From: a virus
Taxonomy: Duplodnaviria; Heunggongvirae; Uroviricota; Caudoviricetes
Direction: 5' to 3' (one strand)
IMG/VR virus record: IMGVR_UViG_2791355382_000001
Location: 1-64,000 of that record
DNA length: 64,000 bases
Shown: in pieces, positions 24,120 through 63,697 of the stretch
How the letters are laid out: the number at the start of each line of letters is the position of its first letter
Numbering within the stretch: position 1 is the stretch's first letter
Notes under the pieces: generated by a model
Database searches by the model: none
Told to the model about the DNA's origin: nothing
The model's input: only the letters and a program-made list of their open reading frames with translations
Program-made: the position numbers and the translations under genes

Positions 24120-24215
24120 TTTTTTGGGAACTCTTCAACAAAGAAAAGCAACCTGCAATTCTTTGCTTGCGAAGATGTTTACCAAACTGTGAAGAGCAAG
24201 CACCCTCCTATAACG
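24120..24215 (-). ncRNA. partial copy C' of the conserved element (tRNA-proximal about 95 nt only), immediately upstream of the TnpB-like gene's 5' end
   Basis: Keeps GGGAACTCTTC...GATGTTTACCAAACTGTGAAGAGCAAGCACCCT but lacks the array-proximal repeat-like part. Confidence 0.45.
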
Positions 24216-24272
24216 ATGGTAGGAATCGAACCTACGTCGCCTCGCTTTGCTCTGCCATTGAGCTACATCGTT
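24211..24272 (-). ncRNA. tRNA-like minihelix lacking the anticodon arm (copy C)
   Basis: Minus-strand read: AACGATG-TA-GCTC-AATGGCA-GAGC-A-[13 nt AAGCGAGGCGAC...]-GTAGG-TTCGATT-CCTAC-CATCGTT-A. Canonical D- and T-arms with a 13-nt linker instead of the anticodon arm. Confidence 0.6.
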
Positions 24273-28031: not shown

Positions 28032-28330
28032 TTTTTATAAGGTATCTATGACCTTATCACGTATTTATCAGAGTTAATAAATACATGTTCTTACCCTTCG
28101 ACAATGTTATCTCAGCTTATAAACAAGGTTGACTAGCACATTAACCTTATGCTTGTTTACAGAGCCTTCATAGAGCTAGAAACTAGGGTATCATTTCTAG
28201 GTATGATCACTGAAATAACGTAGTTACTTAAAACTTAGTCTAGACAACAAGGCTTGTAGTTTATTGCTACAAGTCACCTACTTTAGTAGGTGGTTACTGT
28301 TGACTGCACTTTTCCGTCTACCACGTCGAT
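28032..28330 (-). ncRNA. candidate IscB omegaRNA region (upstream of iscB, same strand)
   Basis: The position matches known IscB omegaRNAs (5' of iscB). Contains stable hairpins (CTAGAAACTAGGGTATCATTTCTAG; TAGGTGGTTACTGTTGACTGCACTTTTCCGTCTACCAC). Called from position and structure only. Confidence 0.3.
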
Positions 28331-32322: not shown

Positions 32323-32383
32323 TAGCGATGACAGGAGTCGAACCTGTATCTCATGCCTTGCTCTACCGTTAAGCTACATCGCT
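32323..32383 (-). ncRNA. tRNA-like minihelix lacking the anticodon arm (copy F)
   Basis: Minus-strand read: AGCGATG-TA-GCTT-AACGGTA-GAGC-[14 nt]-ACAGG-TTCGACT-CCTGT-CATCGCT-A. Confidence 0.6.
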
Positions 32384-40712: not shown

Positions 40713-42065
40713 GTGAAAACGATGGTCAGGAAACAAAAATCTAAGAAAGCTACCATACAAGCTTTTAGAGATATAAGAGATAAAAAGACAGAAATTCAGT
40801 ATGAATACTTGGTAGAAAAACATGTTATTAGAGCTAATGACAGTCGTTATTTAACCTTAGCTAAGTACGCTCACTTGGCTAATAATATCTATAACCAAGC
40901 TTTATATCGCTTTAGGCAATCTTTATTTAAAGGTAAATGGTTGAGTTATGGAGCATTAGATAGGTCATTTAAACAGTCATATCAACAAAAAGATTGTATG
41001 CTTTATCGTTCTATGAAAAGCGTTCATTTAGCTCAACAAATTTTAAAGTTAGTCATGCAAAATATGACTGTTTGGAATAAAGCTGTTAAAGCTTATCAGA
41101 AGAATCCTGGTAAATTTACTGGTAGACCTAAGCTGCCAAAATATAAAAACAAAGGCGGTAAAAGTATCGTTATCGTAGATAATCAAACCGCTAAATTACG
41201 TCCAAATGGCATTGTTGAAATACCTGTAATGAATAATCTAAAAATTAAGTTACAACATCAAGATACAACTAAAATTCAACAAGTTAGGATTGTTCCTAAA
41301 AATAATCAGTTTGTAGTTGAAATTGTTTATAAAACTAACAAGGTTATTGCTTATAAAAAAGATAACGGACGTTATCTTACAATAGATCCAGGACTTGATA
41401 ATGCTTTTACTTTGGCATCTAATGTTAAAGAGTTTCAACCTGTAATTGTTAATGGACGACCTTTAAAGGCAATTAACCAATACTATAACAAACAAAGAGC
41501 TAAATTAACTAAGTTATACGACTTTAATAAACAAAGTCGTAATACTAAACGTTTAAATAACTTAGATTTTTATCGTAATAAAAAAGTTTTAGGATTTGCT
41601 CATGAGGCAAGTAAACGCATTGTTGAAATAGCGTTAAACCATGAGTTAAATACGATTGTTATTGGTAAAAATAAAGGTCAAAAACACTTTATTAATCTAG
41701 GTAAAATTAACAATCAGAATTTTATTGGAATCCCACATCAAAAAATGGTAGAGATGATTGAATATAAAGCTAACTTAGCTGGAATTGTTGTTATTCAAGC
41801 CAATGAGGCTTATACCAGTCAAACATCATTTTTAGATAACGAAGAACCAATTAATCAAAATGGAGATAAAGCTCGTAAACGTAAAGGACTAAGTCCTACT
41901 AAAAGACGTATAAAACGTGGATTATTCAGGTCGAATAAAGGCTTTTTGATTAATGCTGATGTTAATGGAGCTTTACAGATATTAAGAAAAGTAGTACCGA
42001 ACGCTTTTGCTGACGGTATAGATGGAATCGGATTAGTTCCAGTTAAGCTAAACTTAAATTTCTAA
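40713..42065 (+). CDS. tnpB: TnpB (IS605/IS1341 OrfB family) with a degenerate zinc finger
   Basis: RuvC-II EAYTSQTS and RuvC-III NADVNGALQILRK. 450 aa. The C-terminal region lacks the usual CxxC pair. Confidence 0.75.
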   Translation: MKTMVRKQKSKKATIQAFRDIRDKKTEIQYEYLVEKHVIRANDSRYLTLAKYAHLANNIYNQALYRFRQSLFKGKWLSYGALDRSFKQSYQQKDCMLYRSMKSVHLAQQILKLVMQNMTVWNKAVKAYQKNPGKFTGRPKLPKYKNKGGKSIVIVDNQTAKLRPNGIVEIPVMNNLKIKLQHQDTTKIQQVRIVPKNNQFVVEIVYKTNKVIAYKKDNGRYLTIDPGLDNAFTLASNVKEFQPVIVNGRPLKAINQYYNKQRAKLTKLYDFNKQSRNTKRLNNLDFYRNKKVLGFAHEASKRIVEIALNHELNTIVIGKNKGQKHFINLGKINNQNFIGIPHQKMVEMIEYKANLAGIVVIQANEAYTSQTSFLDNEEPINQNGDKARKRKGLSPTKRRIKRGLFRSNKGFLINADVNGALQILRKVVPNAFADGIDGIGLVPVKLNLNF

Positions 42066-42246: not shown

Positions 42247-42504
42247 GTGATTTTATTGTCAACTTTAGATAATTTGGCTAACGCAAGTTACGAGCGTAGA
42301 CAGCAACGCATTATGAAATTGCGTCGAGATTTTAACGACATGAAATATATAACGGTTGATAGTGTGGTTAAGCTAACTGGTTACACTGAAGCTACTGTTA
42401 TTAAGTGGGCAAAGGACGGCAATATACCATTGTTAATTGACAATGGAACAACGGTTGTACCAGTCACAGACGAAAACAGACCTACCTGGATGGGGGGATC
42501 TTAA
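42247..42504 (+). CDS. small HTH DNA-binding protein (excisionase/MerR-like)
   Basis: ITVDSVVKLTGYTEATVIKWAKDGNIP helix-turn-helix. Confidence 0.5.
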   Translation: MILLSTLDNLANASYERRQQRIMKLRRDFNDMKYITVDSVVKLTGYTEATVIKWAKDGNIPLLIDNGTTVVPVTDENRPTWMGGS

Positions 42505-43247
42505 TGCGAAAACTTCCAGACATCATGCTAACCGTAGGTGTTGTTTCTTTGATATTCTTTGGCGGTTATTACATCTATTCTGCAAACCTTTTTAACAGCA
42601 CTCAAGCTGTAGCTAGTTCCAGTCGTAAGCCTTTAGTCGTATCAGATTCTGAAGTTACGGATAGTCATGTTGAAACTATCCATCAAGATGCTATTAAAAA
42701 CGATCAAGCAAATTTAAATAGGGTTGGTACGGTAGCAATTCCAGATTTAGGTATTTTGCTTCCTATTTACAATAAGCCTTATGATGAACAAGCTTTATTA
42801 GTAGGTGCGCAACAACTAGAAGCAAAAGGAAAAGATGCAGATCAAGCAACGATAGGAAAAGGTAATTTTTTACTAGTGGCTCATAATTATACTGACGGTA
42901 AGAAGATGTTTAGTCCACTCCAACAAAACATGGGACTTAACGCTCCTTATTTAGTTAATCGACACGCACAAGATAATCATTGGCTAGATGGTAAAAAGAT
43001 TTATTTAGCTAATGACAAAGGTTTGTATGAATATACAATTGATGTTCAGCATACAATTCCTGAATATAAAACAGATATTCAAAACAACACTGATAAACCT
43101 GAAATTAACGTGATTACTTGTCTTGAACCTGACGATAGTTGGAGAATTGATACTCACGGTAATTTAAGTCAAAAATGGAGTTGGGATCAAGCTCCTAGCG
43201 ATATTATTAACTACTTTGACTTAAACAAGCAACAATTCAATAAGTAA
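42504..43247 (+). CDS. sortase-like transpeptidase
   Basis: N-terminal TM anchor. A His in LLVAHNYTDG (sortase LAGH-like) and a Cys motif INVITC resembling sortase L-T-L-I-T-C, with an Arg 9 residues downstream. An LPQTG substrate is encoded at 55536..55835. Confidence 0.5.
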   Translation: MRKLPDIMLTVGVVSLIFFGGYYIYSANLFNSTQAVASSSRKPLVVSDSEVTDSHVETIHQDAIKNDQANLNRVGTVAIPDLGILLPIYNKPYDEQALLVGAQQLEAKGKDADQATIGKGNFLLVAHNYTDGKKMFSPLQQNMGLNAPYLVNRHAQDNHWLDGKKIYLANDKGLYEYTIDVQHTIPEYKTDIQNNTDKPEINVITCLEPDDSWRIDTHGNLSQKWSWDQAPSDIINYFDLNKQQFNK

Positions 43248-43251
43248 GGAA

Positions 43252-44034
43252 GTGATTTGTGTGAAAGCCAAAAAAGATAAGCAGGAACGTTTAAACCTTG
43301 TTAAAAAGATTGCTAGAAACACTTTTTGGGGATTGATGGTAACGCTGGTTATAACTTTGATGATGGTAGTTGTTGCAACGATTACACAACCTAAATACTT
43401 ACCAGTAATGTCTAACAATATTTTTGAGTTGAAGTATGTTGCTGACTGGGTATTTTTGATAGGCATTGTTTTACTTATTGTTTTAGGCGGATTTATTTTG
43501 TATAAGACCGTAAAGAAACAAAGCGTATGGAATTTTGTTTTTAGTAACTTAGCTCTACTAATGACTTCCAGTGGCTTAGGCTTTATTGTTTTATCGTTTC
43601 TCTTACCTAAAAACAAACTTACAGTTAAAGCTGTTGGTCGAGCAGTTAAATTAGTTAACATCAGCTATTTTCTTACTTTTATTATCATTGCAATTACTAC
43701 TATGTTTGCTGTTTATATAAGTAGAAAATACGTTGATAAAAACAACTGGTACTTATACTTTGCACTACTACCATACATTATTTGGGCAGGTTGGACTTAT
43801 CAGCAATACCAACACTGGCAAAGCTTTTTATCAGCTAAGAATTTTAATATTCAAAGATTAACATCTATGTTTATCTACTATCAATCACATGGGACTAAGA
43901 TTGATATGAACTTAATGTTTGAAGGCTATAAGAGTTGCGCATTTGTGGTTTTAATAGCCTTCATTTATTTATTAACAGTAGGAGGGGTGCAACTTGTTTT
44001 TAAAGTCAAAGAAAAAATCCAAAGAAAAGCCTAA
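43252..44034 (+). CDS. polytopic membrane protein (260 aa)
   Basis: 6-7 TM helices. Confidence 0.5.
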   Translation: MICVKAKKDKQERLNLVKKIARNTFWGLMVTLVITLMMVVVATITQPKYLPVMSNNIFELKYVADWVFLIGIVLLIVLGGFILYKTVKKQSVWNFVFSNLALLMTSSGLGFIVLSFLLPKNKLTVKAVGRAVKLVNISYFLTFIIIAITTMFAVYISRKYVDKNNWYLYFALLPYIIWAGWTYQQYQHWQSFLSAKNFNIQRLTSMFIYYQSHGTKIDMNLMFEGYKSCAFVVLIAFIYLLTVGGVQLVFKVKEKIQRKA

Positions 44035-45121
44035 AAAAGAAAAGAAGAAAAAGAAAGATAAAAACGTTGAAAAGGTCGATAAGGTCAACCAAAAGGTAAA
44101 CGAAAAGGAACATACCTTTGCTGACGTAAAGATGTACCGTATCATGCCTTTAATCACACTGATTGGCTTTTTGATTGTTGGTTTAAGTTTTGGAACAATT
44201 TTTAAGAATAACCATGATTATAAGGTAATGCTATCACGTATCACTATGAAAAAAGGTACAAGCTTGCCATTGTTTCAAGGTGAGTCTAAAGGTGATTTAA
44301 CAGTTGGTAATGTTATTGTTTCTAAGGATAACAAGAACTTAGCAGCCGAAATTAAATATGATGATACAGCTCACCAACAATTATCTTCATTTGGTAAAAA
44401 GTACAAGTTATACATTGTTACTAGCAAGTCTTATCATATCGAAAACCTATCAGCTAAGTATGGGTTCTTTGGAACTGACGGTAACGGTGTTTTAACGGTT
44501 AAAAGTAAGGTTCCATTTCCAAATGAGGCTTTTGTTATCATGATTTACGATAAGGGACAGTTGATTTCAAGTTCTGACATTCAATCAGACAATGTTACAG
44601 ACGAAACCCTAGACAAATCTATTACACAACAGTTGGCTGGAGATGACTCTTCAAGTATGACTAGCACTCAAAGTCAAACTAATGAAGACACAAGACCACC
44701 AGTTTACTACATTCGTGTAAACCCAGCTTCATCTAAACGAGTAGACTACAACTGGGGTAACAATGAGCGTAAGTTAGTTGACAACTTGTTTGTAAAGCAA
44801 AACCTTGCTAAGTATCGTAAGCAAATCAAAGATGCCCACAAGAAAATCAAGATGGCACAAGCTACGCTCAAAGAATATGACAAGCGTTTAGCTGAAAACC
44901 CTGAAGATCAAACAGCGCTATCAGGTAAGCAACAAATGGAACAATCCATTTCAGCTTTAAAAGAAGATGTTGCAACCGCTGATAAGAACTATCAAAGAAT
45001 GGCAAATTATAGAATTAAAAAGGACGCTTTAGGTGTTGAACAAACTAACTTCAAACGTTTGCAAGCTAACAATATGCAAATGTTTAGTGGTACAGCTGAT
45101 GACGCTAAAGCTCAACAGTAA
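43994..45121 (+). CDS. conjugation-associated membrane-anchored protein (375 aa) with a lysine-rich N-terminus and coiled-coil C-terminus
   Basis: KKKSKEKPKKEKKKKKDK, then a TM helix, then an extracytoplasmic domain. Confidence 0.45.
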   Translation: MFLKSKKKSKEKPKKEKKKKKDKNVEKVDKVNQKVNEKEHTFADVKMYRIMPLITLIGFLIVGLSFGTIFKNNHDYKVMLSRITMKKGTSLPLFQGESKGDLTVGNVIVSKDNKNLAAEIKYDDTAHQQLSSFGKKYKLYIVTSKSYHIENLSAKYGFFGTDGNGVLTVKSKVPFPNEAFVIMIYDKGQLISSSDIQSDNVTDETLDKSITQQLAGDDSSSMTSTQSQTNEDTRPPVYYIRVNPASSKRVDYNWGNNERKLVDNLFVKQNLAKYRKQIKDAHKKIKMAQATLKEYDKRLAENPEDQTALSGKQQMEQSISALKEDVATADKNYQRMANYRIKKDALGVEQTNFKRLQANNMQMFSGTADDAKAQQ

Positions 45122-45136: not shown

Positions 45137-45376
45137 ATGACAAGAACAGAACTTTTGTTAGCAGTAACTAGATACTGTGAACAATATCCAGAAACATCGC
45201 TAGAAAGCATTATTAAAGATGTTGCTGACACTTATCACGAAGTTCAAGCCAAGACGATCAAGCCTTATGATCCAGAAGAATTAACAGGGCTTGATTTAGA
45301 TAGGGCTGATAGTTACGAAACTAGCGTTTACAAGAATAACTATGATGGAACCGCTAGAGATGATGATTTAAGCTAA
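45137..45376 (+). CDS. hypothetical acidic protein (79 aa)
   Basis: ORF with an RBS. Confidence 0.35.
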   Translation: MTRTELLLAVTRYCEQYPETSLESIIKDVADTYHEVQAKTIKPYDPEELTGLDLDRADSYETSVYKNNYDGTARDDDLS

Positions 45377-45393
45377 GGAGGTATTTTATTTAG

Positions 45394-48261
45394 ATGTTAG
45401 GATTAAAAAATGATCTAAAACTAGTTATACCTGAAGATATTGCTAAAGAGTATAACTATTCTTTGGAAGAAATTAAAACTAACGATAAAGAAATCTTAGG
45501 TTACGACAAACAAATCAGTGATTTAAACGCAGTCTTGTATAACCCTAAAGCTCCAACTGGAATGTTGTTAGGTATGCAAGGTTCAGGTAAAACTTCCTTA
45601 GTTAGATACTGGGTTAAAACACGAGCTAAAACTTCTATTCCATTAATAGTAGTACAGTTAGACATTGAACGTTTAGGCGAACTTGGATCTGATGTTATGG
45701 TTTCAAGAATGCGTAAGCTTTTGACTAACATGCAAATAATTAAAGACGCTACTAAAGAAGCTAACCCTGGTATCAACTTCCAAATGGCTTTATTTATAGA
45801 TGAAATTCACAAGTTAAACAACTATGGTGAAGCTACTAAAGGGGTTGGTGAAAAGGCTGGTTCTAGCGGTGCGATGAACGCTTTTAAGGAAGAAACAGCT
45901 GAAGGTGTATTCCCAGTAATCGCTGCGACAACTGACTATGAATATCGCATTAACATCAAGCCTGATGGAGCGTTTGACAGACGTTTTGCTAAGATTTATA
46001 TTACACAGCCAGCTAAACCAATTGTTTTTAAGATCTTAAAGACTAGCTTAAACACTTGGTTAAATGCAGGTAAATTTGTACCAGAAATATCAGATAAAAC
46101 GTTAAGTGATTTAATTGATTACACTAACGCTTATATCTACAATCAAGCTAACCCTGGTAAGTCGCTTGATATTTTAGCCTCAGCCGTAGGTTTATGTACT
46201 AACAGACATTTAGAAAACCCTGATGATGGCTGGGAGATTACGCACGAAGTCTTAGAACAAGTCTTTTTAGCTAATGGTTTTAGGATTGGTGCATACGATG
46301 AACGAGATATTAACCTAGTTATTCCTCCAGATATTCAAAAGGATTATAACGACTCTTTATCTAAGATGGAAAAAGGCAAGAATACCTTAATAGGTTATAA
46401 AGAAGAAATCATGAAGCTTGATTCAACCATGTATCGACCAGAAAAACCTTCTGCTTTGCTTTTAGGTAAGCAAGGTATTGGTAAAACAGCTTTGGTTGAA
46501 CAATGGATCTACAATCGTTCACTGACAACACTGCCAGTAGTGGTAGTAGAGTTAAACGTTGAAAAGCTAGGTACTCTAAGTGAAAATGATATGATTTCTA
46601 AGATGAAAGACCTACTTCCAACTTTAAACGAAATCAAAAAAGCAACCGTTGAAGCAAACCCTGATAAAAAATTTCAGATGGTTTTGTTCATAGATGAAAT
46701 TCATAAGTTGTATAATTATGGTAAGCCAGATAGTAATAAAGCTGGATCTTCTGCTGCGATGAACGCTTTAAAGGAAGGGCTTGCTAGAGCTAAGTTTCCA
46801 TTAATTGGAGCTACAACTGACTATGAATACCGTGATTATATCGTTAATGATGCTGCTTTTGATAGACGTTTAGGCAAAGTTATTATGACTCCACCTAGCT
46901 TAGATACAACAGTTACAATCTTACGTAGACGTGTTGATTCATGGGAAGGTAAGTTAGACTTTGTTCCAGAATGTTCAGATGATATTTTACGTGAAATTGT
47001 AAAATACGCTGATGCCTTTATTCAAAACCAAGTTAACCCAGACAAGTCTTTAACAATTTTAGACAGTTGTGTAGGGATTGCTAGAAGGTTGCATGTTTTA
47101 GATGAAAATAAAGGTAATAAAATTACTCACGAAATTGTAAGACAAGCTTTCTTAGCTGAAGATTATGAGATTGACACAGACGTTCCTCCAGAACACATCA
47201 TTAAAGTTGTTAATGAGTCTGTTTTAGGTCAACCGTTGGCTTTATATCAACTAGCTGATGTTGTAAATACTGCCTTTTATTCTGAACGTAATTTTAAGAA
47301 ACCTTTATTTACAGCCTTTTTTGTAGGTTCAACTGGGGTAGGTAAATCAGAAACAGCTAAGGCTTTAGCTCAAGCGTTTTATGGACGTAGAGATGCTATC
47401 TTAACTCTTAACGGTGGTGATTATGCAACTCCTGAAAGTGCCATTAAAGCTCAACGTTTTATCGCAGATCAAATGACGGTAAACAAACGGCAAGTTATCT
47501 TGTTAGACGAAATTGAAAAGTCACATAAAACGGTTATGGACACCTATATGCGAATGATTGATGAAGGTATTGTTGTAGATAAATACGGCAATCAACGTTC
47601 GTTAAACTCAACCGTTATTATTGCTACATCTAACTTAGGGTCTGACATCTTTAGTGACTTGTCGCAAGTTATGCACTTAAACCAACAAGAAAATCCTAAT
47701 GAGTTAACTTCACAATTAGAAGAAGCATGGTGGAGGCGAGAGTCGTCCGTACGTAAAGCTTTGCAAAATGGTGACGCTGGATTGAACAATGGTATCAAGC
47801 CTGAGTTCTTGGAAAGATTTTCCTTGTTTGTACCATTCTTACCACTAGCTAGAAAGACCATGGCGATGATTGCAAGAATGCAGTTAGAGAGGTTTAAACA
47901 AAACATGACTCACGCTAGATATAGCATAGATATTATGTTGCCTAAGAAGATGAGTCATGCCTGGTGGCAAAACCAAATGTCATTTGCTGATACACCGTAT
48001 GGCGATGATGATCCAATTTCAGTAATGATTGCCGAAGACTTAGTTGGTAGTGAAGCTAAAACTTCAGGGGCAAGATCCATTACACGTTATATTGACGGTT
48101 CGATTAAAACTAAGGTTACACGTTTGTTAGCACAAAGATTAAGGCATAATCAACCGATTGATGGAGTGTTTAAGCTTGAAGCTAAAAATGCCAGCTTTAC
48201 AACTAATACTGGTGATAGACCAACAGTTGAAGTAAGCTATATTCCTGTTGAGGAACTGTAA
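45394..48261 (+). CDS. Clp/Hsp100-like AAA+ ATPase with three nucleotide-binding modules (two tandem D1-like, one D2-like)
   Basis: D1a GMQGSGKTSLV...LFIDEIHKLNNYG...AATTDYEYRINIKPDGAFDRRF. D1b GKQGIGKTALV...LFIDEIHKLYNYG...GATTDYEYRDYIVNDAAFDRRL. D2 VGSTGVGKSETAKALA...LLDEIEKSHKTVMDTYMRMIDEGIVVD...ATSNLGS (ClpB D2 signature). Confidence 0.7.
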   Translation: MLGLKNDLKLVIPEDIAKEYNYSLEEIKTNDKEILGYDKQISDLNAVLYNPKAPTGMLLGMQGSGKTSLVRYWVKTRAKTSIPLIVVQLDIERLGELGSDVMVSRMRKLLTNMQIIKDATKEANPGINFQMALFIDEIHKLNNYGEATKGVGEKAGSSGAMNAFKEETAEGVFPVIAATTDYEYRINIKPDGAFDRRFAKIYITQPAKPIVFKILKTSLNTWLNAGKFVPEISDKTLSDLIDYTNAYIYNQANPGKSLDILASAVGLCTNRHLENPDDGWEITHEVLEQVFLANGFRIGAYDERDINLVIPPDIQKDYNDSLSKMEKGKNTLIGYKEEIMKLDSTMYRPEKPSALLLGKQGIGKTALVEQWIYNRSLTTLPVVVVELNVEKLGTLSENDMISKMKDLLPTLNEIKKATVEANPDKKFQMVLFIDEIHKLYNYGKPDSNKAGSSAAMNALKEGLARAKFPLIGATTDYEYRDYIVNDAAFDRRLGKVIMTPPSLDTTVTILRRRVDSWEGKLDFVPECSDDILREIVKYADAFIQNQVNPDKSLTILDSCVGIARRLHVLDENKGNKITHEIVRQAFLAEDYEIDTDVPPEHIIKVVNESVLGQPLALYQLADVVNTAFYSERNFKKPLFTAFFVGSTGVGKSETAKALAQAFYGRRDAILTLNGGDYATPESAIKAQRFIADQMTVNKRQVILLDEIEKSHKTVMDTYMRMIDEGIVVDKYGNQRSLNSTVIIATSNLGSDIFSDLSQVMHLNQQENPNELTSQLEEAWWRRESSVRKALQNGDAGLNNGIKPEFLERFSLFVPFLPLARKTMAMIARMQLERFKQNMTHARYSIDIMLPKKMSHAWWQNQMSFADTPYGDDDPISVMIAEDLVGSEAKTSGARSITRYIDGSIKTKVTRLLAQRLRHNQPIDGVFKLEAKNASFTTNTGDRPTVEVSYIPVEEL

Positions 48262-48315
48262 TTGCAAATAATCGTAGTTTGCATTACTTACACAACGAAA
48301 ATAGAGGTGATTTTT

Positions 48316-51300
48316 TTGGATTATGTAAAAGGTGTTAGGACTTCGCTTAACAGACAAAGCTTACTTAGGTTTTTAAAAAGTAAGTTTGTTGTTTTAGGAG
48401 TGCTAATTCTAACGATTTTTGGTAGTTTTGGTGCGTTGACACAAACTACTAAAGCCGACGATAGCGACAACATCGCTACAGTTTATCAATACTTCCTATT
48501 AAAAAACCGTTCGTCAACAAGCAAACAAAGCTTTACAGATAAAATGATGAAAGGTATTTTAGGACAAACAGATAAAAGTGGTATTTTAGGTTCTGGTGGG
48601 GCTAGTGGTACTTTTGGTTATCAAGAATTAATTGATAACTCTAAGGATAAAGCACAAGCTAAGCGTTTTTCAGAATTGATGGCCACTTTATCCTACTATA
48701 ATTATATTTCTACACAAGGTAATGGTTTTGCTTTACTTTTATCGTATGTAGGTAGATTTTTTGTAGGGTTGATTTTAACGGTATTAGGGGCAGTCATGGA
48801 TATTATGATTAACTCTTGGTATCTAATTATCAACTTCTTTGCCAAATGGAATGTATTTAATTTAATTGGCGGAACATTAGCTAAGAATAAAGTTGCACTT
48901 GATATGGCATCAGCTTTAGGTTTGAAGAGTGATTCGGTTCAATGGTTCATTAATACCTTTATGGTACTTGGAATTACAACCTTGATTGGTACATTTTGTT
49001 GGGCAGTTACTAAACGTGGTATGCAAAATGCCGATTATTCTAAGGTTAAAGGTCGAATCATTGGTTTGTTAATGGTTCCAATTGCAATGATGGCAGGGTT
49101 TGAATTACTGTCAGATATTACTGAGTACACATCAAAAGATTCAGCATCAAACACACCTTTTGCCAGCTACTTAATGGACGTTAAGACATGGGCAGAAAAG
49201 TATAACTTTGACTTAACTGTCGCTAACGTTAAGACAAGTGGTAAAACTAAAGGTTTTGTTATGACTAAGTACAATCCATACTCAGGGTTTAACCCAGTTA
49301 CAGGTCAAAGTGCATCGGATTCGCTAACACAAACGATTTTTCATGCAAACGATATGTCTAAAGGATTGTTCCCTAACACTAACTTAGCGATTGATTATCT
49401 ATCAAGTAAAGTATTTGATGGCTATAGTTATATTAGTTACTTACAAGGAGATCAATCTAAAACTGACGGTGCTTATGGTTCTATTTCATCTTTAGTAGAC
49501 TCTAAAGGTGGTAAATGGATTTACGATTTTGATACACCTTATTCATCAACTGGAATTAAGTTAGATGATGACTACTTGAAACAAAATCCAATGAGTAAAG
49601 CCAAAGATGATTACGTAGGTAAGATTGACGGCGATGAAAAGAACGTCAAATCACTTGCATCAATTTGGACTGACCGTTACGTCTACGGTTACAAAAACGA
49701 AGGTTCTAAAATTGAAGACTACTATAAAGAAGGGCCTTCAGGAGAACAAATCTCAGCCGCATATGGACGTAATGATAAAGCAGACGGTACAGCTTTAAGT
49801 GTTCCTTCCATGTTTTATGTTTTAAACACACACTGGAACGATCAAGGTGGTACATTCTCAATTACTTCACCACCTACAGGAGCATTTAAAGACATCGCTA
49901 AATTCGCTGATGATAGAGCTGTTTACTACGATGTTTCCATGGTTGGTGTACCATTCTTTAGTGTTTGTGGTTTAATCGCTATTCCATTGTTTACAGTATT
50001 GGTATTCATCGCCGCTGTTGAAGCCTTTTTAGCAATGGGTATCTTAGACATGAACATGCGTCCACTTAGAGCCTGGATGCTGGCTATTATCAAAGGTGAT
50101 TATGAATACTCGGTTGCTGTTATCGTTTATGGTTTAGGTCTTGTAGGCTCAATCATTATGGCTACAGTCGTACCTAACATGTTAATCAAATTCTTTACAG
50201 GTTCATTAAGTGGTATCTTTAGTCGTTTGAGTTCTTCTGCTGACAATGGTTCAATGGCAGGTGGAATTGGACTATTCTTTACAGCCTTTTTAGCAATCGT
50301 ATTTTGGGTTGCTTACATCAAGAATGTATCAGGGCTTAGAGATAAGTTAACAGGCTTTATTATGTTACCTTGGACATGGGCTTCATCTACAGGTCAATCA
50401 TTAGAAGATCAAGCTAATGGTGGAGCTAGAAACCTTGTAGGTAGAGGTAGTGATTTACGTAATCAAAAACGTGAACAAAGCGCATTAAGAAATAGAAACA
50501 TGATTAACGCTGCTGAAAACTGGGCTTCAGGCGGTGGCATGAAGAAAACTAGATTTGGCAGAAAACTTGATGATTTAACTGGTAATCGTATCAGTGGAGC
50601 GCAAGGTAAGTTAAGCCGTGCTGCATTGTTAGCTCAACATATGATGGGCAATTACGCAGACGGTGTAACTGGTGATGACACTCATACAGCTGGTGAAAAT
50701 AACTTAGAACGTATCAAGCGTTTAGGTTTAGCTCAACGTCAAACTCAAAAACTAGCTCAGCTATCACGCAATGCTAAAAACGGTAAGTTAGGTGTTGATG
50801 ATAAGGCTAGTGAACAAATTGACAACAAGATTAGAAACAAGATTCACCCTAACGATCTATCTAACCTAGAAAACGGCAAGGCTTTAACTGACGCATACAA
50901 GCAAATTGATAAAGCTGATGAACAAATCGGTAAAGATGACGATCGTATCAACAACATTAAAAAGGCTATTGCGTTCCAAGACAGTATTGCTACTAACCCT
51001 AACAGCGATGCTAAGACCGTTGATAAAGCAATGGCTAAGAAACGCAAACTTATGCAAGAACTTGAAAAAGCTCAACAAGATAAGAAAGAACATCAAAATC
51101 AAAAAGCAAATCTTCAACAAGTTGCTGATGACACTGTTGGTAAGATTAAGTTCAACGATAATGTTGAAGGCTTAAGCAAGGCTGATACTAAGTATCGTCA
51201 AGACCTTAACAAAGAACTTGACCGTATCAACGCTAAACAAGATGATATTGACAACAGTAGAGCTATCATAAGCGATGCTTTGGCAGATCCTAATATAAGC

Positions 51301-53001
51301 GATGCTAATAAGGCTAAGTTGAAAGATCAACTCCAAGACTTAGATAGACAACAATCAAGCTTAGATAGTGCTAAGGCAGTTCATGCTAAGAAAGCTAAGA
51401 CTTACGCAAACAGTTCTATCAAGCGTGCTGAGAAGTTGAATAATCCAAAAGCTGTTAGAGAGAGTTTACAAAAACTTGCACAACAAGCTACTAACCAGCT
51501 TAATGAGTTCGTTGACAACCCAGACGAAAAGAAAGTTAAAGTTCTTAACGAAGACTTTAAGCACCTTAAGACACAAATGGATCGCTACGGTATTACTCCA
51601 GATGAAATTGGCTTTGACCCTCAAGCTGCTATGGACGACTTAGCACAAAATAGTGGCAACTTACCAGACAGTGTATTTGATGAAAATGCCTTAGCTATTG
51701 ATGAAAATGGCTTAACTGATTACGCTGCTGATTACGGACGTAGAAATATGATTCGCAGAAAGGGTAGCATTGACTCAATGGAAACTAAAGACGGTTCTAC
51801 TTTAGGCGATGTTATGAAGAATAAGGTAAGCTTTGAAACTAAAGCTCCAAAAGAGTTTAACAATGCTGATAAGTTAGCTCAACAAGTTCAACAAATGAGA
51901 AAAGCAAGTCCTACATCAGGTAGTGGAGTTGGTGGAAATGGTAGCAAGACTATCGTTCAAAACAACCCTGCTAATAACGATGGAACAAAGGTAGTTCAAC
52001 AAACAGTTGGTGGCGGAAATCCACAACAAACTGTAGAACAAACCGTAGTTCAAGGACAAGGTAATCCTGAACAAACTGTTATCAGACGTAATGCTAACGG
52101 TGGGCAAAGGACAATCCAACAAACAGTCAGTGGTAGTGGAAATCCACAACAAACTGTTATCAGACATAATGTTAACGGTGGGCAAAGGACAATCCAACAA
52201 ACAGTTAGTGGCAATAACCCACAACAAACTGTAGTTCAAAACCAAGGTAACCCTGAGAAAACTGTTATCAGACGTAATGCTAACAACGGTGAAACAAAGG
52301 TAGTTCAAGATACAGTTAGCGGAGGAACCAACCCTACACAAACTGTAGTTCAAGGGCAAAACAACCCAGAACAAACTATCATTAGACGTAATGCTAACAA
52401 CGGTGAAACAAAGGTAGTTCAAGATACAGTTAGCGGAGGAACCAACCCTACACAAACTGTAGTTCAAGGGCAAAACAACCCAGAACAAACTATCATTAGA
52501 CGTAATGCTAACAACGGTGAAACAAAGGTAGTTCAAGATACAGTTAGCGGAGGAAATAATCCTTCTCAAACAGTAGTTCAAGGACAAAACAACCCAGAAC
52601 AAACTATCGTTAGACACGTTAATAATGGTGGAACAAAGGTAGTTCAAGATACAGTTAGTGGAGGAACCAATCCTTCTCAAACCGTAGTTCAAGGACAAAA
52701 CAATCCAGAACAAACTATCGTTAGACACGTTAATAATGGTGGAACAAAGATAGTTCAAGAAACAGTTAGTGAAGGAAGTAATCCTACACAAACCGTAGTT
52801 CAAGAACAAAAAGCACCAGAACAAACCATTATTAAGCATAATGTTAATGCTGGGAAAGAAATTCAAAATGTAGTTGACAATAGTCCACAAACTAAGGCTG
52901 ACTATAGTGTTGATAATAATCCTAAGCAAAACTTAGATGGTCTTAACCAAAACAATCACGTAAACCTAGATAATAATCCAAGCGATGATCTAGGCAAATA
53001 A
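48316..53001 (+). CDS. giant polytopic membrane protein (VirB6/TcpH-like) with a long charged coiled-coil region and C-terminal tandem repeats
   Basis: Start moved to the TTG at 48316 (RBS AGAGGTGA). At least 8 TM helices in the first roughly 700 aa, then an A/K/D/Q-rich coiled-coil, then about 7 tandem 42-aa repeats. Confidence 0.6.
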   Translation: MDYVKGVRTSLNRQSLLRFLKSKFVVLGVLILTIFGSFGALTQTTKADDSDNIATVYQYFLLKNRSSTSKQSFTDKMMKGILGQTDKSGILGSGGASGTFGYQELIDNSKDKAQAKRFSELMATLSYYNYISTQGNGFALLLSYVGRFFVGLILTVLGAVMDIMINSWYLIINFFAKWNVFNLIGGTLAKNKVALDMASALGLKSDSVQWFINTFMVLGITTLIGTFCWAVTKRGMQNADYSKVKGRIIGLLMVPIAMMAGFELLSDITEYTSKDSASNTPFASYLMDVKTWAEKYNFDLTVANVKTSGKTKGFVMTKYNPYSGFNPVTGQSASDSLTQTIFHANDMSKGLFPNTNLAIDYLSSKVFDGYSYISYLQGDQSKTDGAYGSISSLVDSKGGKWIYDFDTPYSSTGIKLDDDYLKQNPMSKAKDDYVGKIDGDEKNVKSLASIWTDRYVYGYKNEGSKIEDYYKEGPSGEQISAAYGRNDKADGTALSVPSMFYVLNTHWNDQGGTFSITSPPTGAFKDIAKFADDRAVYYDVSMVGVPFFSVCGLIAIPLFTVLVFIAAVEAFLAMGILDMNMRPLRAWMLAIIKGDYEYSVAVIVYGLGLVGSIIMATVVPNMLIKFFTGSLSGIFSRLSSSADNGSMAGGIGLFFTAFLAIVFWVAYIKNVSGLRDKLTGFIMLPWTWASSTGQSLEDQANGGARNLVGRGSDLRNQKREQSALRNRNMINAAENWASGGGMKKTRFGRKLDDLTGNRISGAQGKLSRAALLAQHMMGNYADGVTGDDTHTAGENNLERIKRLGLAQRQTQKLAQLSRNAKNGKLGVDDKASEQIDNKIRNKIHPNDLSNLENGKALTDAYKQIDKADEQIGKDDDRINNIKKAIAFQDSIATNPNSDAKTVDKAMAKKRKLMQELEKAQQDKKEHQNQKANLQQVADDTVGKIKFNDNVEGLSKADTKYRQDLNKELDRINAKQDDIDNSRAIISDALADPNISDANKAKLKDQLQDLDRQQSSLDSAKAVHAKKAKTYANSSIKRAEKLNNPKAVRESLQKLAQQATNQLNEFVDNPDEKKVKVLNEDFKHLKTQMDRYGITPDEIGFDPQAAMDDLAQNSGNLPDSVFDENALAIDENGLTDYAADYGRRNMIRRKGSIDSMETKDGSTLGDVMKNKVSFETKAPKEFNNADKLAQQVQQMRKASPTSGSGVGGNGSKTIVQNNPANNDGTKVVQQTVGGGNPQQTVEQTVVQGQGNPEQTVIRRNANGGQRTIQQTVSGSGNPQQTVIRHNVNGGQRTIQQTVSGNNPQQTVVQNQGNPEKTVIRRNANNGETKVVQDTVSGGTNPTQTVVQGQNNPEQTIIRRNANNGETKVVQDTVSGGTNPTQTVVQGQNNPEQTIIRRNANNGETKVVQDTVSGGNNPSQTVVQGQNNPEQTIVRHVNNGGTKVVQDTVSGGTNPSQTVVQGQNNPEQTIVRHVNNGGTKIVQETVSEGSNPTQTVVQEQKAPEQTIIKHNVNAGKEIQNVVDNSPQTKADYSVDNNPKQNLDGLNQNNHVNLDNNPSDDLGK
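51990..52870 (+). repeat. in-frame tandem repeat, 126-bp period (42 aa: NPEQTIIRRNANNGETKVVQDTVSGGTNPTQTVVQGQN), about 7 copies with near-identical central copies
   Basis: Seen directly in the translation; the central copies are 100% identical at DNA level. Confidence 0.85.
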
Positions 53002-53138: not shown

Positions 53139-53465
53139 GTGATACAAATGCAAGCTTGGTTATTAACACAGTTATTAACCATTAACAACGTAGTCTTTGG
53201 CGCTGGTGGTGAAAACACAAGAAACTGGGGACAAAATATTGTTAAAGCTGGAATCAACGTTATCTTAGGTGTTGGTGGATTAGTCTTAGTAGGACGTGGA
53301 GCTTTTGACATTGTTAAAGGCTGGTTCAACGACAACAAAGACTGGAAACGTATTGGCATGGGTGTGCTAACAGTAATCGTTGGCGGTGCATTAATTGCAT
53401 GGTCTGTTGTTAGCCTACAAAGCTTCGCTAATAACCTTGGTGGAGATTTCAACTTAACAAACTAG
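53139..53465 (+). CDS. small two-TM membrane protein (possible VirB2-like pilin / T4SS small subunit)
   Basis: 108 aa with two hydrophobic helices. T4SS gene context. Confidence 0.4.
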   Translation: MIQMQAWLLTQLLTINNVVFGAGGENTRNWGQNIVKAGINVILGVGGLVLVGRGAFDIVKGWFNDNKDWKRIGMGVLTVIVGGALIAWSVVSLQSFANNLGGDFNLTN

Positions 53466-53469
53466 TGGC

Positions 53470-53514
53470 TTTAAAAAGCCCACATAAGAGGGCGCTTCAA
53501 ACGTCCTCTTTTTT
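53470..53514 (+). terminator. rho-independent terminator (two hairpins, second followed by T6)
   Basis: GTGGCTTTAAAAAGCCCAC and AGAGGGCGCTTCAAACGTCCTCTTTTTT. Confidence 0.6.
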
Positions 53515-53534
53515 AATTAGAACGGAGGTTTTTT

Positions 53535-55520
53535 ATGAGAAACGAAATATCTTTTGCGTTAGGTTTTCAAGCAACGAACTTAAGCCAAGGAGCAATTGAT
53601 TTTTTTGAAAATAACAATGCTATCAAAACAGAAGATGGCTACGCTTTGGCTTATAGGGAGTCTGATCAAGATTTATATGGTGATTTACTTAACTTTGATG
53701 GAACGGTTAGTTTAGGGGTTATTAACGAACAAAATCAAATGTATTATCCAAGTGATACTTTAACTAAGATTTTTGCTGATGATAACTCTATGGAAGTTAG
53801 TGAATTAGATTTAACTTTGCCATATGCTTTGGAAGACTTTGTTAATAGTCATATGCCAGAAATTCAAGATGAAATCAAGCGCATTAAAGAACAATACTAT
53901 CCTAACGACAAAGCTAAGTTAGACCTAAACCCAGGTACTAATGTTCAAACACAAACGCAAGTACAAACACAAGCTCCAGCACAAGAACAAACTCCTGTAC
54001 AAACACAAACACAAGCTCCTGCTAATAAAGCAGTTGCAGTTATTCCAAGCGTTAATGGAGAAGATGATAATTCAGAGCTTTATGACTTGTCAGGCAAAAA
54101 CGATACTCAAACAAGTAATCAAGATTTAGATGCTAACTTAGACGTCAAGGCTGATGAAAGTGTAGATACAAATGATAATCTTCCAGCACAAACAGCTGTT
54201 GAAGCTAAGCCTGAAAATCACATTGCTCAAGGCACGGTAGATCCTTTATTAACTTTAGCTGCTGACATTTTTGAAAACAATGAAGCAATCAGTTTTCCTA
54301 AATATGATGAATACACACATAAGCAAATTCAGGCTCAAATTGTTAAGAGTGAATCAACTGTATTCATCGCAAGAGATGAAGCTATTTACACGATTTACAA
54401 CATCTTAAAAGCACATGCACCTAAGTTTGAACAAGAGTTTGAAGATGATTTTCTTAACTCTAAGCAAAAGCATGATCTTAGGTTAAAGAGCATTGAAACT
54501 TCTAAGAACAATCGAATAGAAAAAATGGAAGCTGCAATGCAAAAAGAATACATGAGTAATCGTGAAAAGTTTGTTGAAGCACAACGTACAATCCTAGAAA
54601 CAAATTATGATAACGATCATTTAGCTCAACAACAACAAAGAGTTAATCAAGAACGTCAACGTTACATTGATGAAGCTGAATTTGCAACAACTAAAGAGAA
54701 AAAGGATTATCAAGATCATTATAAAGAAGAAAGACAACGTTTCTTAGAAAGACGTTTCCGCCAAATTGATATTGCTCAAGTGCTTAACGATTTTGAACAA
54801 GTTGTTCATCAAGAAACAATGGCAATTGAACAAGAAGCAACACAATTTGCTAACCAAGTTGGTGTAGTTACAGAAAGCGTTAAGAAACAACAAGAAGCTG
54901 CTGAATTAAACGCTAAAAGCGCTCAAGAACAATTAAATATCTTCAATAAGACAATGCAAGAAAAGATTGAAGCTCGTGTTGAAAAAGAAGTACAAAAGCG
55001 TACATCTTCATTACAACAACAATTAATTGACTCTCAAAAACGTGTAACTGATGCTCAAAACAACATTGAAAGCTTACAAAAGAACAACAAGGCTTTAGTT
55101 GCAAGTAATGAGAAGTTACAAACAGCTAATGACGCTTTGAATAACATTAAAATTGACAGAGTTCCAGCACCAGCACCTACTCCAGCACCAGCAGTAGAAC
55201 CTGTTACAGAACCAGCTAAAAAGAAGAATGTTTGGGGATTGGTTGCAGGCTTTATCGTAGCTTTAGTTGCAGTAGTTATTATCACAGCTGGGGTAACAAC
55301 TTTAGTTACAAACCATAATAACCAAACACAAACAACTAGTGTATCAAGCTCTCAAGAGTCTGTTGTTTCTAGTTCCAGTGCTAAGGATTATCAAAAAGGT
55401 GATACTTGGACTTATTCCAAAGATGGCCACAAGTACAAAGTAACTATGGATAACAGTACGCAAGGACATTATACAGACCAAGATGGAAGACAACATCGTA
55501 TCACTTTAACAAATGAATAA
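53535..55520 (+). CDS. conjugation-associated coiled-coil protein with a C-terminal TM anchor and extracellular domain (TcpC/PrgL-like?)
   Basis: 661 aa. Q/T/A repeats, a long coiled-coil, a PAPAPTPAPA linker, a TM helix (WGLVAGFIVALVAVVIITAGV), then a roughly 90-aa C-terminal domain. Confidence 0.45.
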   Translation: MRNEISFALGFQATNLSQGAIDFFENNNAIKTEDGYALAYRESDQDLYGDLLNFDGTVSLGVINEQNQMYYPSDTLTKIFADDNSMEVSELDLTLPYALEDFVNSHMPEIQDEIKRIKEQYYPNDKAKLDLNPGTNVQTQTQVQTQAPAQEQTPVQTQTQAPANKAVAVIPSVNGEDDNSELYDLSGKNDTQTSNQDLDANLDVKADESVDTNDNLPAQTAVEAKPENHIAQGTVDPLLTLAADIFENNEAISFPKYDEYTHKQIQAQIVKSESTVFIARDEAIYTIYNILKAHAPKFEQEFEDDFLNSKQKHDLRLKSIETSKNNRIEKMEAAMQKEYMSNREKFVEAQRTILETNYDNDHLAQQQQRVNQERQRYIDEAEFATTKEKKDYQDHYKEERQRFLERRFRQIDIAQVLNDFEQVVHQETMAIEQEATQFANQVGVVTESVKKQQEAAELNAKSAQEQLNIFNKTMQEKIEARVEKEVQKRTSSLQQQLIDSQKRVTDAQNNIESLQKNNKALVASNEKLQTANDALNNIKIDRVPAPAPTPAPAVEPVTEPAKKKNVWGLVAGFIVALVAVVIITAGVTTLVTNHNNQTQTTSVSSSQESVVSSSSAKDYQKGDTWTYSKDGHKYKVTMDNSTQGHYTDQDGRQHRITLTNE

Positions 55521-55535
55521 GGTTGGTGAAATTTT

Positions 55536-55835
55536 ATGACAGATGCAGTTATTAAAGACACGGTTGTTCATGAAGATCAATCAAATCAAAATCAAAGTCA
55601 AGACAACGTGCAAAAAACAAGTTCACAAGATAGTGAACAACAAGGTGAAGTTGTAGCTCTTAAAGACTTAGGGAAAACAGCTCAACATACTGATACACAA
55701 AACCAAGAACAAGCGATTTTGCCACAAACAGGGGTAACTAGTCCAGTACCTTTATACGGTGTGATTAGCTCAGCTACTTTAGTTTTGTGTGCCTTAGCGT
55801 TAAAGTTCAGCGAATTTATCAAAGAAAGTAGGTAG
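55536..55835 (+). CDS. small LPxTG cell-wall-anchored protein (sortase substrate)
   Basis: C-terminal LPQTG, then a hydrophobic stretch, then a basic tail (KESR). Confidence 0.6.
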   Translation: MTDAVIKDTVVHEDQSNQNQSQDNVQKTSSQDSEQQGEVVALKDLGKTAQHTDTQNQEQAILPQTGVTSPVPLYGVISSATLVLCALALKFSEFIKESR

Positions 55836-55840
55836 GTACA

Positions 55841-56707
55841 ATGGCTCAATTTCAACCTGACTCTGGTAATAAGATGTCGCTTAGAAGTGAAGCTTTAGAT
55901 CAAATCAAGCGCATTGATTCTATTTCACGGTCGATGGGGAGTTTGGGCGACTTCTTAGTATCTACGTTGTTATCAATCTTAGCGTCTTTGGTTATATTTG
56001 CGATTTTTCCTTTGCTTGCATTAGGGCTTTCAACAACTGGTGCAGGCTTGCTTAAAAACAGTGTTCCGTTTGTTGGTGTAATTATAGGTTCGTTTTTAAT
56101 TGCTTTAAACGCATTGTTTGTTAATCCATCGCAAGGAAGCCAGTTGATAATTTCTATTAATTATCTGCTTAGCCAATTCGGTGATACCAACAAGCGTTAC
56201 TGGCGAAAAGACCGTTACTTCAAGTTCTCTAGTAGAACCCCTGATCGTACGGTGCTTGAAAGCAAGTATAAAGGTAGAACTCACTATACCTTAGTGTATA
56301 AAGTTCAAGGTATGGTATCTCAAACTTCTTTTGATGATGACTTACTTTATTTAAAAATAATTAACAAAAACGCTATTAACAGTTTAGAAAAAGATACGAT
56401 TAGAACAACGGTCAACTTTATTGGAATACCTAGAACAAAGCCTAAGACCCTAAACCCTAACGCTACTCGTGAGATGCAGTTAAGGCAAAGAACACTTTCA
56501 AGAATTGTTACTGGTTTACAAGATACTCAAGTCTTAGAAACTTACATCGTGCTTGATAACGAATCATATGACAGCTTGATGAAGAAAGCTAGAGCGCATG
56601 AAGTCTTCTTTAATCAAGGCATGGTTGTTACATATCATATGCTAAAAGGCGATGAGTTGAAGAAATTGATTAATAAGCTTTATGCAAACGACAATTTTAA
56701 CAAGTGA
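55841..56707 (+). CDS. membrane protein (288 aa), T4SS-associated
   Basis: Three to four TM helices in the N-terminal third. Confidence 0.4.
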   Translation: MAQFQPDSGNKMSLRSEALDQIKRIDSISRSMGSLGDFLVSTLLSILASLVIFAIFPLLALGLSTTGAGLLKNSVPFVGVIIGSFLIALNALFVNPSQGSQLIISINYLLSQFGDTNKRYWRKDRYFKFSSRTPDRTVLESKYKGRTHYTLVYKVQGMVSQTSFDDDLLYLKIINKNAINSLEKDTIRTTVNFIGIPRTKPKTLNPNATREMQLRQRTLSRIVTGLQDTQVLETYIVLDNESYDSLMKKARAHEVFFNQGMVVTYHMLKGDELKKLINKLYANDNFNK

Positions 56708-63497: not shown

Positions 63498-63697
63498 AAA
63501 CATTTAAAAGGGGGGTGAGCTACACCCTTAAGCTATCAGAGTTAGTCAATGTCATTACCCTCTAGTTAGGATATGGGAATACTAGCGTTGACGGTAGTAA
63601 ATAAAATTCAGGAAAGGAAAAATATATTCTTTCTAATAATGTAGAAGGAACTACATATCTTTCTATATTATTCTACATTTTATATAGCTGTTAGCTG

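Follow-up and report, generated by a model that had tools for sequence, protein, structure and literature searches.

The stretch of DNA analysed here, referred to as the window, comprises 64,000 nucleotides (positions 1 to 64,000 of IMG/VR record IMGVR_UViG_2791355382_000001, filed under Caudoviricetes) and carries at positions 45394-48261 a gene for a Clp/Hsp100-like AAA+ ATPase of 955 aa. Two N-terminal modules of the ClpB D1 type, D1a and D1b, are followed in this protein by one module of the ClpB D2 type and by a C-terminal region that is its least conserved part, with a mean pairwise identity of 46%. When the protein was compared with itself by BLASTP, residues 1-305 aligned with residues 306-615 over 291 aa (47% identity, 3 gap positions, E 5e-96), and neither N-terminal half resembled the C-terminal third (E > 5). 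Pfam placed the AAA family (PF00004) in three stretches that include both N-terminal units (E 1.1e-25), the ClpB-D2-type family AAA_2 (PF07724) at aa 637-810 (E 1.6e-25) and AAA_lid_9 at aa 503-566. Furthermore, an AlphaFold2 (AF2) model built on an alignment of 29 orthologues, with a mean predicted local distance difference test score (pLDDT) of 87.9, contains three complete five-stranded AAA+ cores, each with a helical lid after it, and, in D2, a beta-hairpin (aa 726-736) at the place expected for the pre-sensor-1 hairpin of ClpB-D2-type modules. By these three approaches, the internally duplicated D1 and the D1-D1-D2 order proposed in an earlier interpretation made from the DNA letters alone (the sequence-only reading) are no misread, and the motifs quoted there are all present in the protein. 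The window is here 97.5% identical to the complete 166-kb Ligilactobacillus salivarius plasmid NZ_CP123973.1, in which the protein is one coding sequence annotated as 'AAA family ATPase', and its 90%-identity cluster has 172 member sequences; a fusion or assembly artefact was rejected on these two grounds. The DNA of the two D1 halves is only about 70% identical, over 230 nt and in register, so the duplication is old.

All three nucleotide-binding sites are complete in their motifs. D1a has the P-loop GMQGSGKT (aa 60-67), the Walker B motif FIDE (D136, E137), sensor-1 residues T179 and T180 and Arg fingers R196 and R197; the corresponding elements of D1b are GKQGIGKT (aa 358-365), D434 and E435, T474 and T475, and R491 and R492, and those of D2 are GSTGVGKS (aa 645-652), LLDE (D705, E706), N747 and R808. 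Conservation was assessed on 29 three-module orthologues that are 50-57% identical to the query overall. Every Walker B, sensor-1 and Arg-finger residue just named is invariant among them, together with the P-loop residues G63, G65 and K66 in D1a, G361, G363, K364 and T365 in D1b, and G648, G650 and K651 in D2, and with the sensor-2 residues G892, A893 and R894. The extra modules of relatives with four modules likewise keep the catalytic residues, and in some relatives the extra-module P-loop starts with Ala instead of Gly (AREGSGKT), which still fits the pattern [AG]xxxxGK[ST]. By mean pairwise identity (49% for D1a, 56% for D1b and 60% for D2), D1a is somewhat freer than the other two modules yet clearly constrained. 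Judged by these residues, all three ATP sites look live, and the possibility that D1a is a degenerate, regulatory pseudo-module was rejected, since every catalytic residue is invariant.

The number of modules varies within the family, as mapped by phmmer over the length classes of the homologue search. A D1-D2 form of about 640-670 aa has named sources in Enterococcus faecalis, Enterococcus faecium, Listeria booriae, Lactococcus lactis and Lactobacillus johnsonii; the D1-D1-D2 form of about 940-970 aa makes up about 45 clusters at 90% identity; and a D1-D1-D1-D2 form of 1213-1248 aa (P0002-P0005; one at 10001-13642 of contig L005) occurs in the same gene context, with 42 members from many independent assemblies in one cluster. 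The two-module relatives, annotated 'AAA family ATPase' and found on plasmids, are 43-51% identical to the window protein over modules 2 and 3, and more distant ones, including those of pELF-type plasmids, 28-34%. Wherever their loci were examined, they stand likewise at the head of this gene cluster; their pore loops are truncated in the same way, and they have a single D1. Such two-module homologues are indeed common, as the sequence-only reading had allowed for, but they are annotated as 'AAA family ATPase' or 'ClpA' and not as known type IV secretion system (T4SS) components. In a scan of 1.84 billion representatives, the close family amounted to about a dozen clusters at 50% identity, three of them multi-module, embedded in a larger set of Clp-like proteins of about 600-700 aa at about 30% identity.

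A neighbour-joining tree of 148 D1-type modules united almost all of the extra N-terminal modules in a single clade, with the D2-proximal modules of the multi-module proteins as its sister clade, and the pair sits among the single-D1 proteins. Both extra modules of P0002-P0004 nest in the clade of extra modules, and the first module of P0005 branches deeper there. The tree is most simply read as one old duplication of D1, after which the N-terminal module was duplicated again at least once. A recent tandem duplication was rejected on the protein and DNA identities of the two modules and on the single old duplication in the tree. Named sources of the three-module form are L. salivarius, Ligilactobacillus murinus, Ligilactobacillus agilis and Ligilactobacillus sp., and one entry labelled Campylobacter jejuni is probably mislabelled. 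On this tree and these names, the three-module proteins make up a conserved clade of old origin for which Ligilactobacillus is so far the only named source, a host range that rests on few named sequences; the family as a whole is plasmid-borne, mainly in lactic acid bacteria. Several variants were seen besides. In P0029 and P0030 (1321 aa), an insertion with PF14528 (intein-like) splits D2 at the P-loop, and P0089 and the approximately 1000-aa P0210, P0211, P0220 and P0221 are interrupted at that point as well, around query residues 650-660. The linear megaplasmid pLMP1046 of L. salivarius encodes an approximately 850-aa variant with an insertion of about 140 aa inside D1 (14206-16761 of locus L003). 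An unrelated metagenomic Clp protein, P0109 (1233 aa), has a Clp_N domain and three P-loops in a D1-D1-D2-like order, so extra D1 modules may have arisen independently elsewhere.

Comparison with characterized ATPases places the protein close to the class I Clp proteins. A sequence search of the PDB returned ClpB, Hsp101/Hsp104, ClpC and ClpA at E 1e-30 to 1e-44 (best Hsp101/ClpB, 7e-44, phmmer), always in two stretches, about 320-565 on D1 and about 605-850 on D2, with module 1 left over. Foldseek retrieved ClpC and ClpB protomers from substrate-bound hexamers with a template modelling (TM) score of 0.72 relative to the target and 0.46 relative to the query, which means that two of the three modules correspond to these proteins. 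No end-to-end alignment with an ordinary ClpB was obtained, and the PDB chains of ClpB, ClpC and Hsp101 cover module 2 and D2 only. Like ClpB/Hsp104 and ClpC/ClpA, the window protein has a D1 of the classical clade and then a D2, with Walker A and B motifs, sensor-1, a double Arg finger and a sensor-2 GAR; unlike them, it adds a second complete N-terminal D1, lacks the Clp_N domain, the M-domain and the D1 pore tyrosine, and has a shortened D2 loop, (F/Y)IG in the family. NCBIfam models for ClpV, ClpB, ClpG, ClpK and ClpA gave 198-254 bits against curated cut-offs of 885-1900; for ClpB, ClpV and ClpA taken alone, the figures were 210-254 bits and 885-1232. With scores so far below the cut-offs, the protein is Clp-like but belongs to no named Clp; an identity as an ordinary ClpB, ClpL or ClpV was rejected on these scores and on the missing N-domain, M-domain and D1 pore tyrosine.

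Features that define the named Clp proteins were looked for one by one. Of 42 Pfam families at E<=1, the 25 that were listed do not include Clp_N (PF02861), and D1a begins at residue 8. There is no M-domain insertion, the D1 lids being short four-helix units in the AF2 model (aa 208-293 and 503-588), and the HMMER alignment to Hsp101 stops at the D1 lid. The pore-loop tyrosine of D1 (KYRGEFE) is absent, the aligned segments being LGSDVMV in module 1 and LSENDMI in module 2, where HMMER sets a Ser opposite the Tyr of 'GTSYRGEFE'. D2 has a short putative pore loop, AQRFIAD (686-692), whose 'RFI' HMMER aligns with 'GYV' of Hsp101 D2, the GYVG region being about 8-12 residues shorter here. Across the family, the D2 motif reads AQH-(F/Y)-(I/V)-G-D, with an aromatic residue in 63 of 78 sequences, I or V in all 78 and Gly in 77.

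These comparisons bear on two alternatives. The protein could be the unfoldase partner of a ClpP-type peptidase, as ClpA and ClpC are; the best structural matches do include ClpC-ClpP and ClpA-ClpP complexes, and some sources name the homologues 'ClpA'. However, those matches go back to the D1-D2 body that these proteins have in common, no conserved (I/L/V)-G-(F/L) docking tripeptide was seen by eye between sensor-1 (747) and the Arg finger (808) in the 29-sequence consensus, and no clpP was found among the large window open reading frames (ORFs) scanned, which makes this function scarcely credible. Stress-tolerance cargo is the second alternative, namely a stand-alone disaggregase like the plasmid-borne ClpL, ClpK and ClpG that lies beside transfer genes by chance. 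Plasmids of Lactobacillus often carry ClpL-type genes, the protein is 27-29% identical to those of L. plantarum and L. brevis plasmids, and there are partial NCBIfam matches to ClpG and ClpK (E 1e-64 to 1e-65); nevertheless, the scores remain far under the cut-offs (220 against 1900), and the N-domain, M-domain and D1 pore tyrosine are missing. We regard a disaggregase as quite improbable, also on account of the conserved gene order described below.

The gene lies in a cluster of membrane and cell-wall genes (Table 1), most of which have no match in Pfam or NCBIfam. Judged by position only, a small ORF of 65-91 aa corresponds to the 79-aa acidic ORF in five related loci, and a 261-aa gene does so in L007; the 79-aa product is a possible adaptor. 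The polytopic protein encoded directly 3' of the AAA+ gene holds the same place in L001, L002, L004, L007, L008 and L089, is separated from it by a 122-aa gene in L005, and is absent in L003. Depending on the locus it measures about 1000 to 1624 aa, a size unrelated to the number of AAA+ modules, and we consider it a candidate VirB6-like channel subunit. The LPQTG protein may be anchored in the cell wall as part of the apparatus.

Table 1. Features of the window, including the modules of the AAA+ protein and elements outside the gene cluster
Feature	Position	Strand	Evidence and remarks
Three-module Clp/Hsp100-like AAA+ ATPase gene	45394-48261	+	ORF list; 955 aa; Pfam, AF2, Foldseek
Shine-Dalgarno AAGGAGG of the AAA+ gene	45375-45381	+	Sequence read; 12 nt 5' of ATG
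Module D1a, extra N-terminal ClpB-D1-type AAA+ (aa 8-298)	45415-46287	+	Self-BLAST, motif table
Module D1b, ClpB-D1-type AAA+ adjoining D2 (aa 306-593)	46309-47172	+	BLASTP, Pfam, HMMER, motifs; AAA_lid_9
Module D2, ClpB-D2-type (HCLR clade) AAA+ (aa 600-850)	47191-47943	+	Pfam AAA_2, HMMER against Hsp101 D2
C-terminal region (aa 851-955)	47944-48258	+	D2 lid with sensor-2 GAR (892-894) and terminal beta-strand pair
Sortase	42504-43247	+	Pfam Sortase; order kept in L005, L007
260-aa protein with several transmembrane segments and 375-aa coiled-coil protein with one, after the sortase	within 42504-45121	+	Order kept in L005, L007
79-aa acidic ORF directly upstream of the AAA+ gene	45137-45376	+	No family hit
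1579-aa polytopic membrane protein with 38-aa C-terminal repeats	48262-53001	+	No Pfam or NCBIfam match
Repeats of the 1579-aa protein	52062-52834		5.5 copies of a 114-nt (38-aa) unit, 2.2 copies of a 78-nt unit
108-aa membrane protein; 661-aa coiled-coil protein with C-terminal transmembrane segment; 99-aa LPQTG protein; 288-aa membrane protein	53139-56707	+	Order of the four genes conserved in related loci
99-aa LPQTG protein	55536-55835	+	Q/S/D-rich, then hydrophobic segment and basic tail; sortase in the same cluster
665-aa VirB4-fold protein	56682-58679	+	NCBIfam VirB4_plasma, AF2, Foldseek
Cell-wall hydrolase (M23 peptidase and aggregation-promoting-factor C-terminal-like domain) and two single-transmembrane proteins of about 200 aa	58728-61537	+	
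944-aa FtsK/SpoIIIE-family ATPase	6731-9565	-	PF01580, E 3e-20; intact GKTGTGKT, VIVDE
439-aa RRXRR+HNH ORF	26712-28304	-	HEARO RNA immediately before the ORF, Rfam 118 bits
Full-length ROOL RNA	21490-22098	-	225 bits; beside tRNA genes
tRNAs	22511-22571, 24211-24272, 32323-32383	-	
TnpB/IS605-OrfB-type ORF	22557-24044	-	
TnpB/IS605-OrfB-type ORF	40713-42065	+	
TnpB/IS605-OrfB-type ORF	62331-63591	+	Transposase-1 RNA motif follows
RepA_N gene	29903-30970		
ParM/Alp7A gene	35561-36667		

The 665-aa protein is one of the members of the cluster that point to conjugation. Its match to the NCBIfam model VirB4_plasma (VirB4 of mycoplasma integrative and conjugative elements) is weak (E 1.9e-8), a single-sequence phmmer search of the PDB returned nothing meaningful, and none of 56 homologues has a Pfam domain. 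In its AF2 model, pLDDT exceeds 90 for much of residues 290-665, and Foldseek found the VirB4 ATPase domain of Thermoanaerobacter pseudethanolicus (4ag5) as the best match (E 9e-11, TM score 0.70 per target), followed by R388 TrwK/VirB4 and HerA. The sequence GK[ST] is absent throughout the protein. The presumed Walker A site, which we place by analogy with the VirB4 consensus and not by residue-level alignment, reads as an invariant G-S-A-W-A (SGSAWAH) with no Lys, and the presumed Walker B strand ends in IVIHGLD, with invariant H, G and D and no acidic pair; these alignments comprise 29-34 homologues, the pELF-type orthologue not among them. The protein thus appears from its sequence to be a conserved VirB4 pseudo-ATPase, presumably serving as a scaffold. 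Because the VirB4-fold protein appears catalytically dead, the AAA+ protein becomes a candidate energiser of the apparatus and not a mere curiosity. A second ATPase, the FtsK/SpoIIIE-family protein, is a candidate coupling protein. In L002 and L089 its gene closes the same operon as the last of the large genes; in the window it lies about 36 kb from the cluster on the opposite strand. We presume that a rearrangement split it off there, given the IS200/IS605-type elements dispersed over the window.

The cluster recurs on other plasmids. The same gene order is found at 29-57% protein identity in L. salivarius, E. faecalis, E. faecium pZY2, L. johnsonii and metagenomic contigs, and in most loci examined the AAA+ gene heads a cluster with polytopic, LPXTG, VirB4-fold, hydrolase and FtsK-like genes. 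On an E. faecalis pheromone-type plasmid (L002, NZ_CP141099.1), the cluster stands directly downstream of traC/traB and a surface adhesin and ends with FtsK/SpoIIIE. At two places this plasmid matches the AAA+ gene as well as the VirB4-like one, and the cluster may thus be present twice. On the linear plasmid pZY2 of E. faecium (L004) the cluster matches that of pELF2, and on pELF-type linear vancomycin-resistance plasmids including pELF2 the AAA+ protein is about 30% and the VirB4-like protein about 22% identical to those of the window. The L. johnsonii locus and the three-module and four-module metagenomic contigs keep the same order, and a compact JGI contig (L089) has the full set from the AAA+ gene through FtsK/SpoIIIE. 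The order differs on pLMP1046 (L003), where an FtsK-like gene and a gene for a 1411-aa protein lie upstream of the AAA+ variant. A place at the head of the cluster that is kept across genera down to 29% identity would be unexpected for the stress-tolerance cargo considered above.

Taken together, we give slightly better than even chances to the reading that the AAA+ protein serves an atypical, T4SS-like conjugation apparatus as its dedicated cytoplasmic motor, probably a three-ring hexamer that unfolds or remodels a transfer protein. The unfolding or translocation role suggested earlier is plausible. The 'conjugation operon' of the sequence-only reading is reasonable given the VirB4-fold protein, the hydrolase and, in cleaner loci, FtsK/SpoIIIE, although Pfam and MOB-suite recognised no T4SS in the window cluster. 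The protein is predicted to assemble as a hexamer of three stacked rings, D1a, D1b and D2. The D2 ring would grip and thread the polypeptide, because in the family D2 alone keeps an aromatic-hydrophobic-Gly pore loop, and both D1 rings, being without the pore-loop aromatic residue, would spend ATP on assembly, allostery or gating. The machine would unfold or remodel a protein that enters the channel or is built into it, for example a DNA-linked pilot or relaxase-like protein, and would supply the ATPase work that the degenerate VirB4 homologue no longer provides. Since the usual adaptor-binding N- and M-domains are missing, the choice of substrate may come from operon partners, either through the product of the 79-aa acidic ORF or by docking on the VirB4-like or polytopic protein. 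As a tentative extension, which we regard as possible but doubtful, these loci might represent a distinct, so far undescribed Gram-positive T4SS-like class in which VirB4, elsewhere a universally conserved ATPase, is a dead scaffold, and in which a 'stackable' Clp motor, grown to 2, 3 or 4 tiers by the gain of one or two complete D1 rings, does the unfolding and energises the system.

Known machines offer partial parallels to such a motor. VirB4, VirD4 and VirB11 have the role proposed here, that of cytoplasmic hexameric ATPases energising a conjugation channel, but their fold is unrelated to that of the AAA+ protein, and the cluster has its own VirB4-fold protein and FtsK-like ATPase. EccC/EssC of type VII secretion resemble the window protein in having three tandem P-loop ATPase modules per chain; unlike it, they are membrane-anchored, and their modules are of the FtsK/SpoIIIE type and not AAA+. 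The parallel in function is ClpV/TssH of the type VI secretion system, a Clp-type double-ring ATPase dedicated to one secretion machine and encoded in its cluster. ClpV is also the top NCBIfam match of the AAA+ protein (E 3.7e-75, 254 bits against a cut-off of 885). The window protein differs in its T4SS-like Gram-positive setting, in lacking a ClpV N-domain and in its three predicted rings.

This likeness leads to the alternative that the protein is an assembly or disassembly factor, acting as ClpV/TssH does or as NSF does on SNAREs, that remodels a structural component and feeds nothing into a channel. The synteny fits such a factor equally well, and weak or absent pore aromatics in two of the three rings would suit limited pulling over processive threading. 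Moreover, the operon encodes long coiled-coil and repeat proteins, and the clients could be the coiled-coil, LPXTG or giant repeat protein. Against this, the ClpV match is generic and comes without the ClpV-type N-domain, the aromatic-hydrophobic-Gly motif of D2 is conserved, and no specific structural client is singled out. We therefore consider an assembly factor unlikely, without dismissing it.

Several observations weigh against a conjugation motor as well. The position of the D1 pore tyrosine is variable and non-aromatic across 120 D1-type modules of the family, and in both D1 modules a variable small residue replaces the tyrosine; the D2 loop of the window protein reads F-I-A, the only one of 78 sequences without the Gly, and AF2 draws this stretch as a helix. 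MOB-suite typed most carrier plasmids, including NZ_CP123973.1, as non-mobilizable, and no relaxase family was found among the window ORFs scanned with general profiles, no search aimed at relaxases being made. The distant VirB4-like locus L090 has no AAA+ gene within 10 kb upstream. Finally, a 2026 paper on the tra genes of pELF2 reports traC, traD and traG as essential for transfer and never mentions the homologous cluster. On pELF2 (NZ_AP022343.1), the VirB4-like gene lies at about 41-43 kb, apart from the traC/traD/traG operon at 71-78 kb, which is about 30-55 kb away from the homologous cluster. With the essential genes in another operon, the cluster may be accessory on pELF2 or serve another purpose.

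A function in plasmid defence or anti-defence, the other role that had been raised for the protein, found no support beyond partial PADLOC matches (E 1e-15 to 1e-17) in which about 150 aa of D2 align with DolB, PDC-M37B and mad8. At a distance of 5 kb upstream there does lie a DEAD/ResIII helicase, itself with restriction-enzyme-like matches. However, the PADLOC matches cover the generic AAA_2 core only, no partner genes are adjacent, an insertion sequence (IS) element separates the helicase from the cluster, and the synteny is with membrane, cell-wall and VirB4-like genes. A defence ATPase is thus highly improbable, and the conjugation motor remains our preferred reading.

Other elements of the window were noted beside the cluster. 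The RRXRR+HNH ORF, which we take to be IscB-like, looks together with its HEARO RNA like an RNA-guided nuclease element of the OMEGA type. One of the TnpB/IS605-OrfB-type ORFs interrupts the stretch between the DEAD-box helicase and the sortase. The GC skew changes sign near 35 kb, next to the RepA_N and ParM/Alp7A genes.

Natural Clp/Hsp100 proteins have been described with one or two ATPase rings. What is new here, as far as the motifs and alignments reach, is a Clp/Hsp100 protein with an added, catalytically intact D1 module, in a family of variable module number. Full-text searches of incomplete coverage on Clp/AAA+ ATPases in Gram-positive conjugation, on three-AAA-domain Hsp100s and on these plasmids found no description of them; the sequence-only reading, too, knew of no described three-module Clp-like protein in Gram-positive T4SS loci. 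The genome paper of pLMP1046 does not discuss the AAA+ variant gene, and a paper on lactococcal conjugation by pNP40 has no Clp/AAA gene in a cluster of the TraG/TraE (VirB4-like) type. According to a review of December 2025, which never mentions Clp, VirB11 is missing from Gram-positive T4SSs and all signature (Walker) motifs are kept in their VirB4s. Trokter and Waksman (2018), as cited in that review, hold that T4SS protein substrates must be unfolded.

Which ATPase unfolds the protein substrates of conjugation is an open question, for which the AAA+ protein offers a testable candidate unfoldase. A dead VirB4 combined with a Clp-type motor, if true, would contradict two statements found in reviews, one that Walker motifs are always kept in VirB4 and the other that VirB4 and VirD4 are the only such ATPases of Gram-positive systems. 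The presence of the cluster on pELF-type vancomycin-resistance plasmids and on an E. faecalis pheromone-type plasmid bears on the movement of resistance plasmids, and current typing tools call most of the carrier plasmids non-mobilizable. If the predicted assembly is true, these proteins would be the first Hsp100 machines of three and four tiers found in nature, and the orthologues with two, three and four modules, all with conserved nucleotide sites and in the same genomic setting, would form a natural experiment on what an extra ring contributes to grip, processivity or gating.

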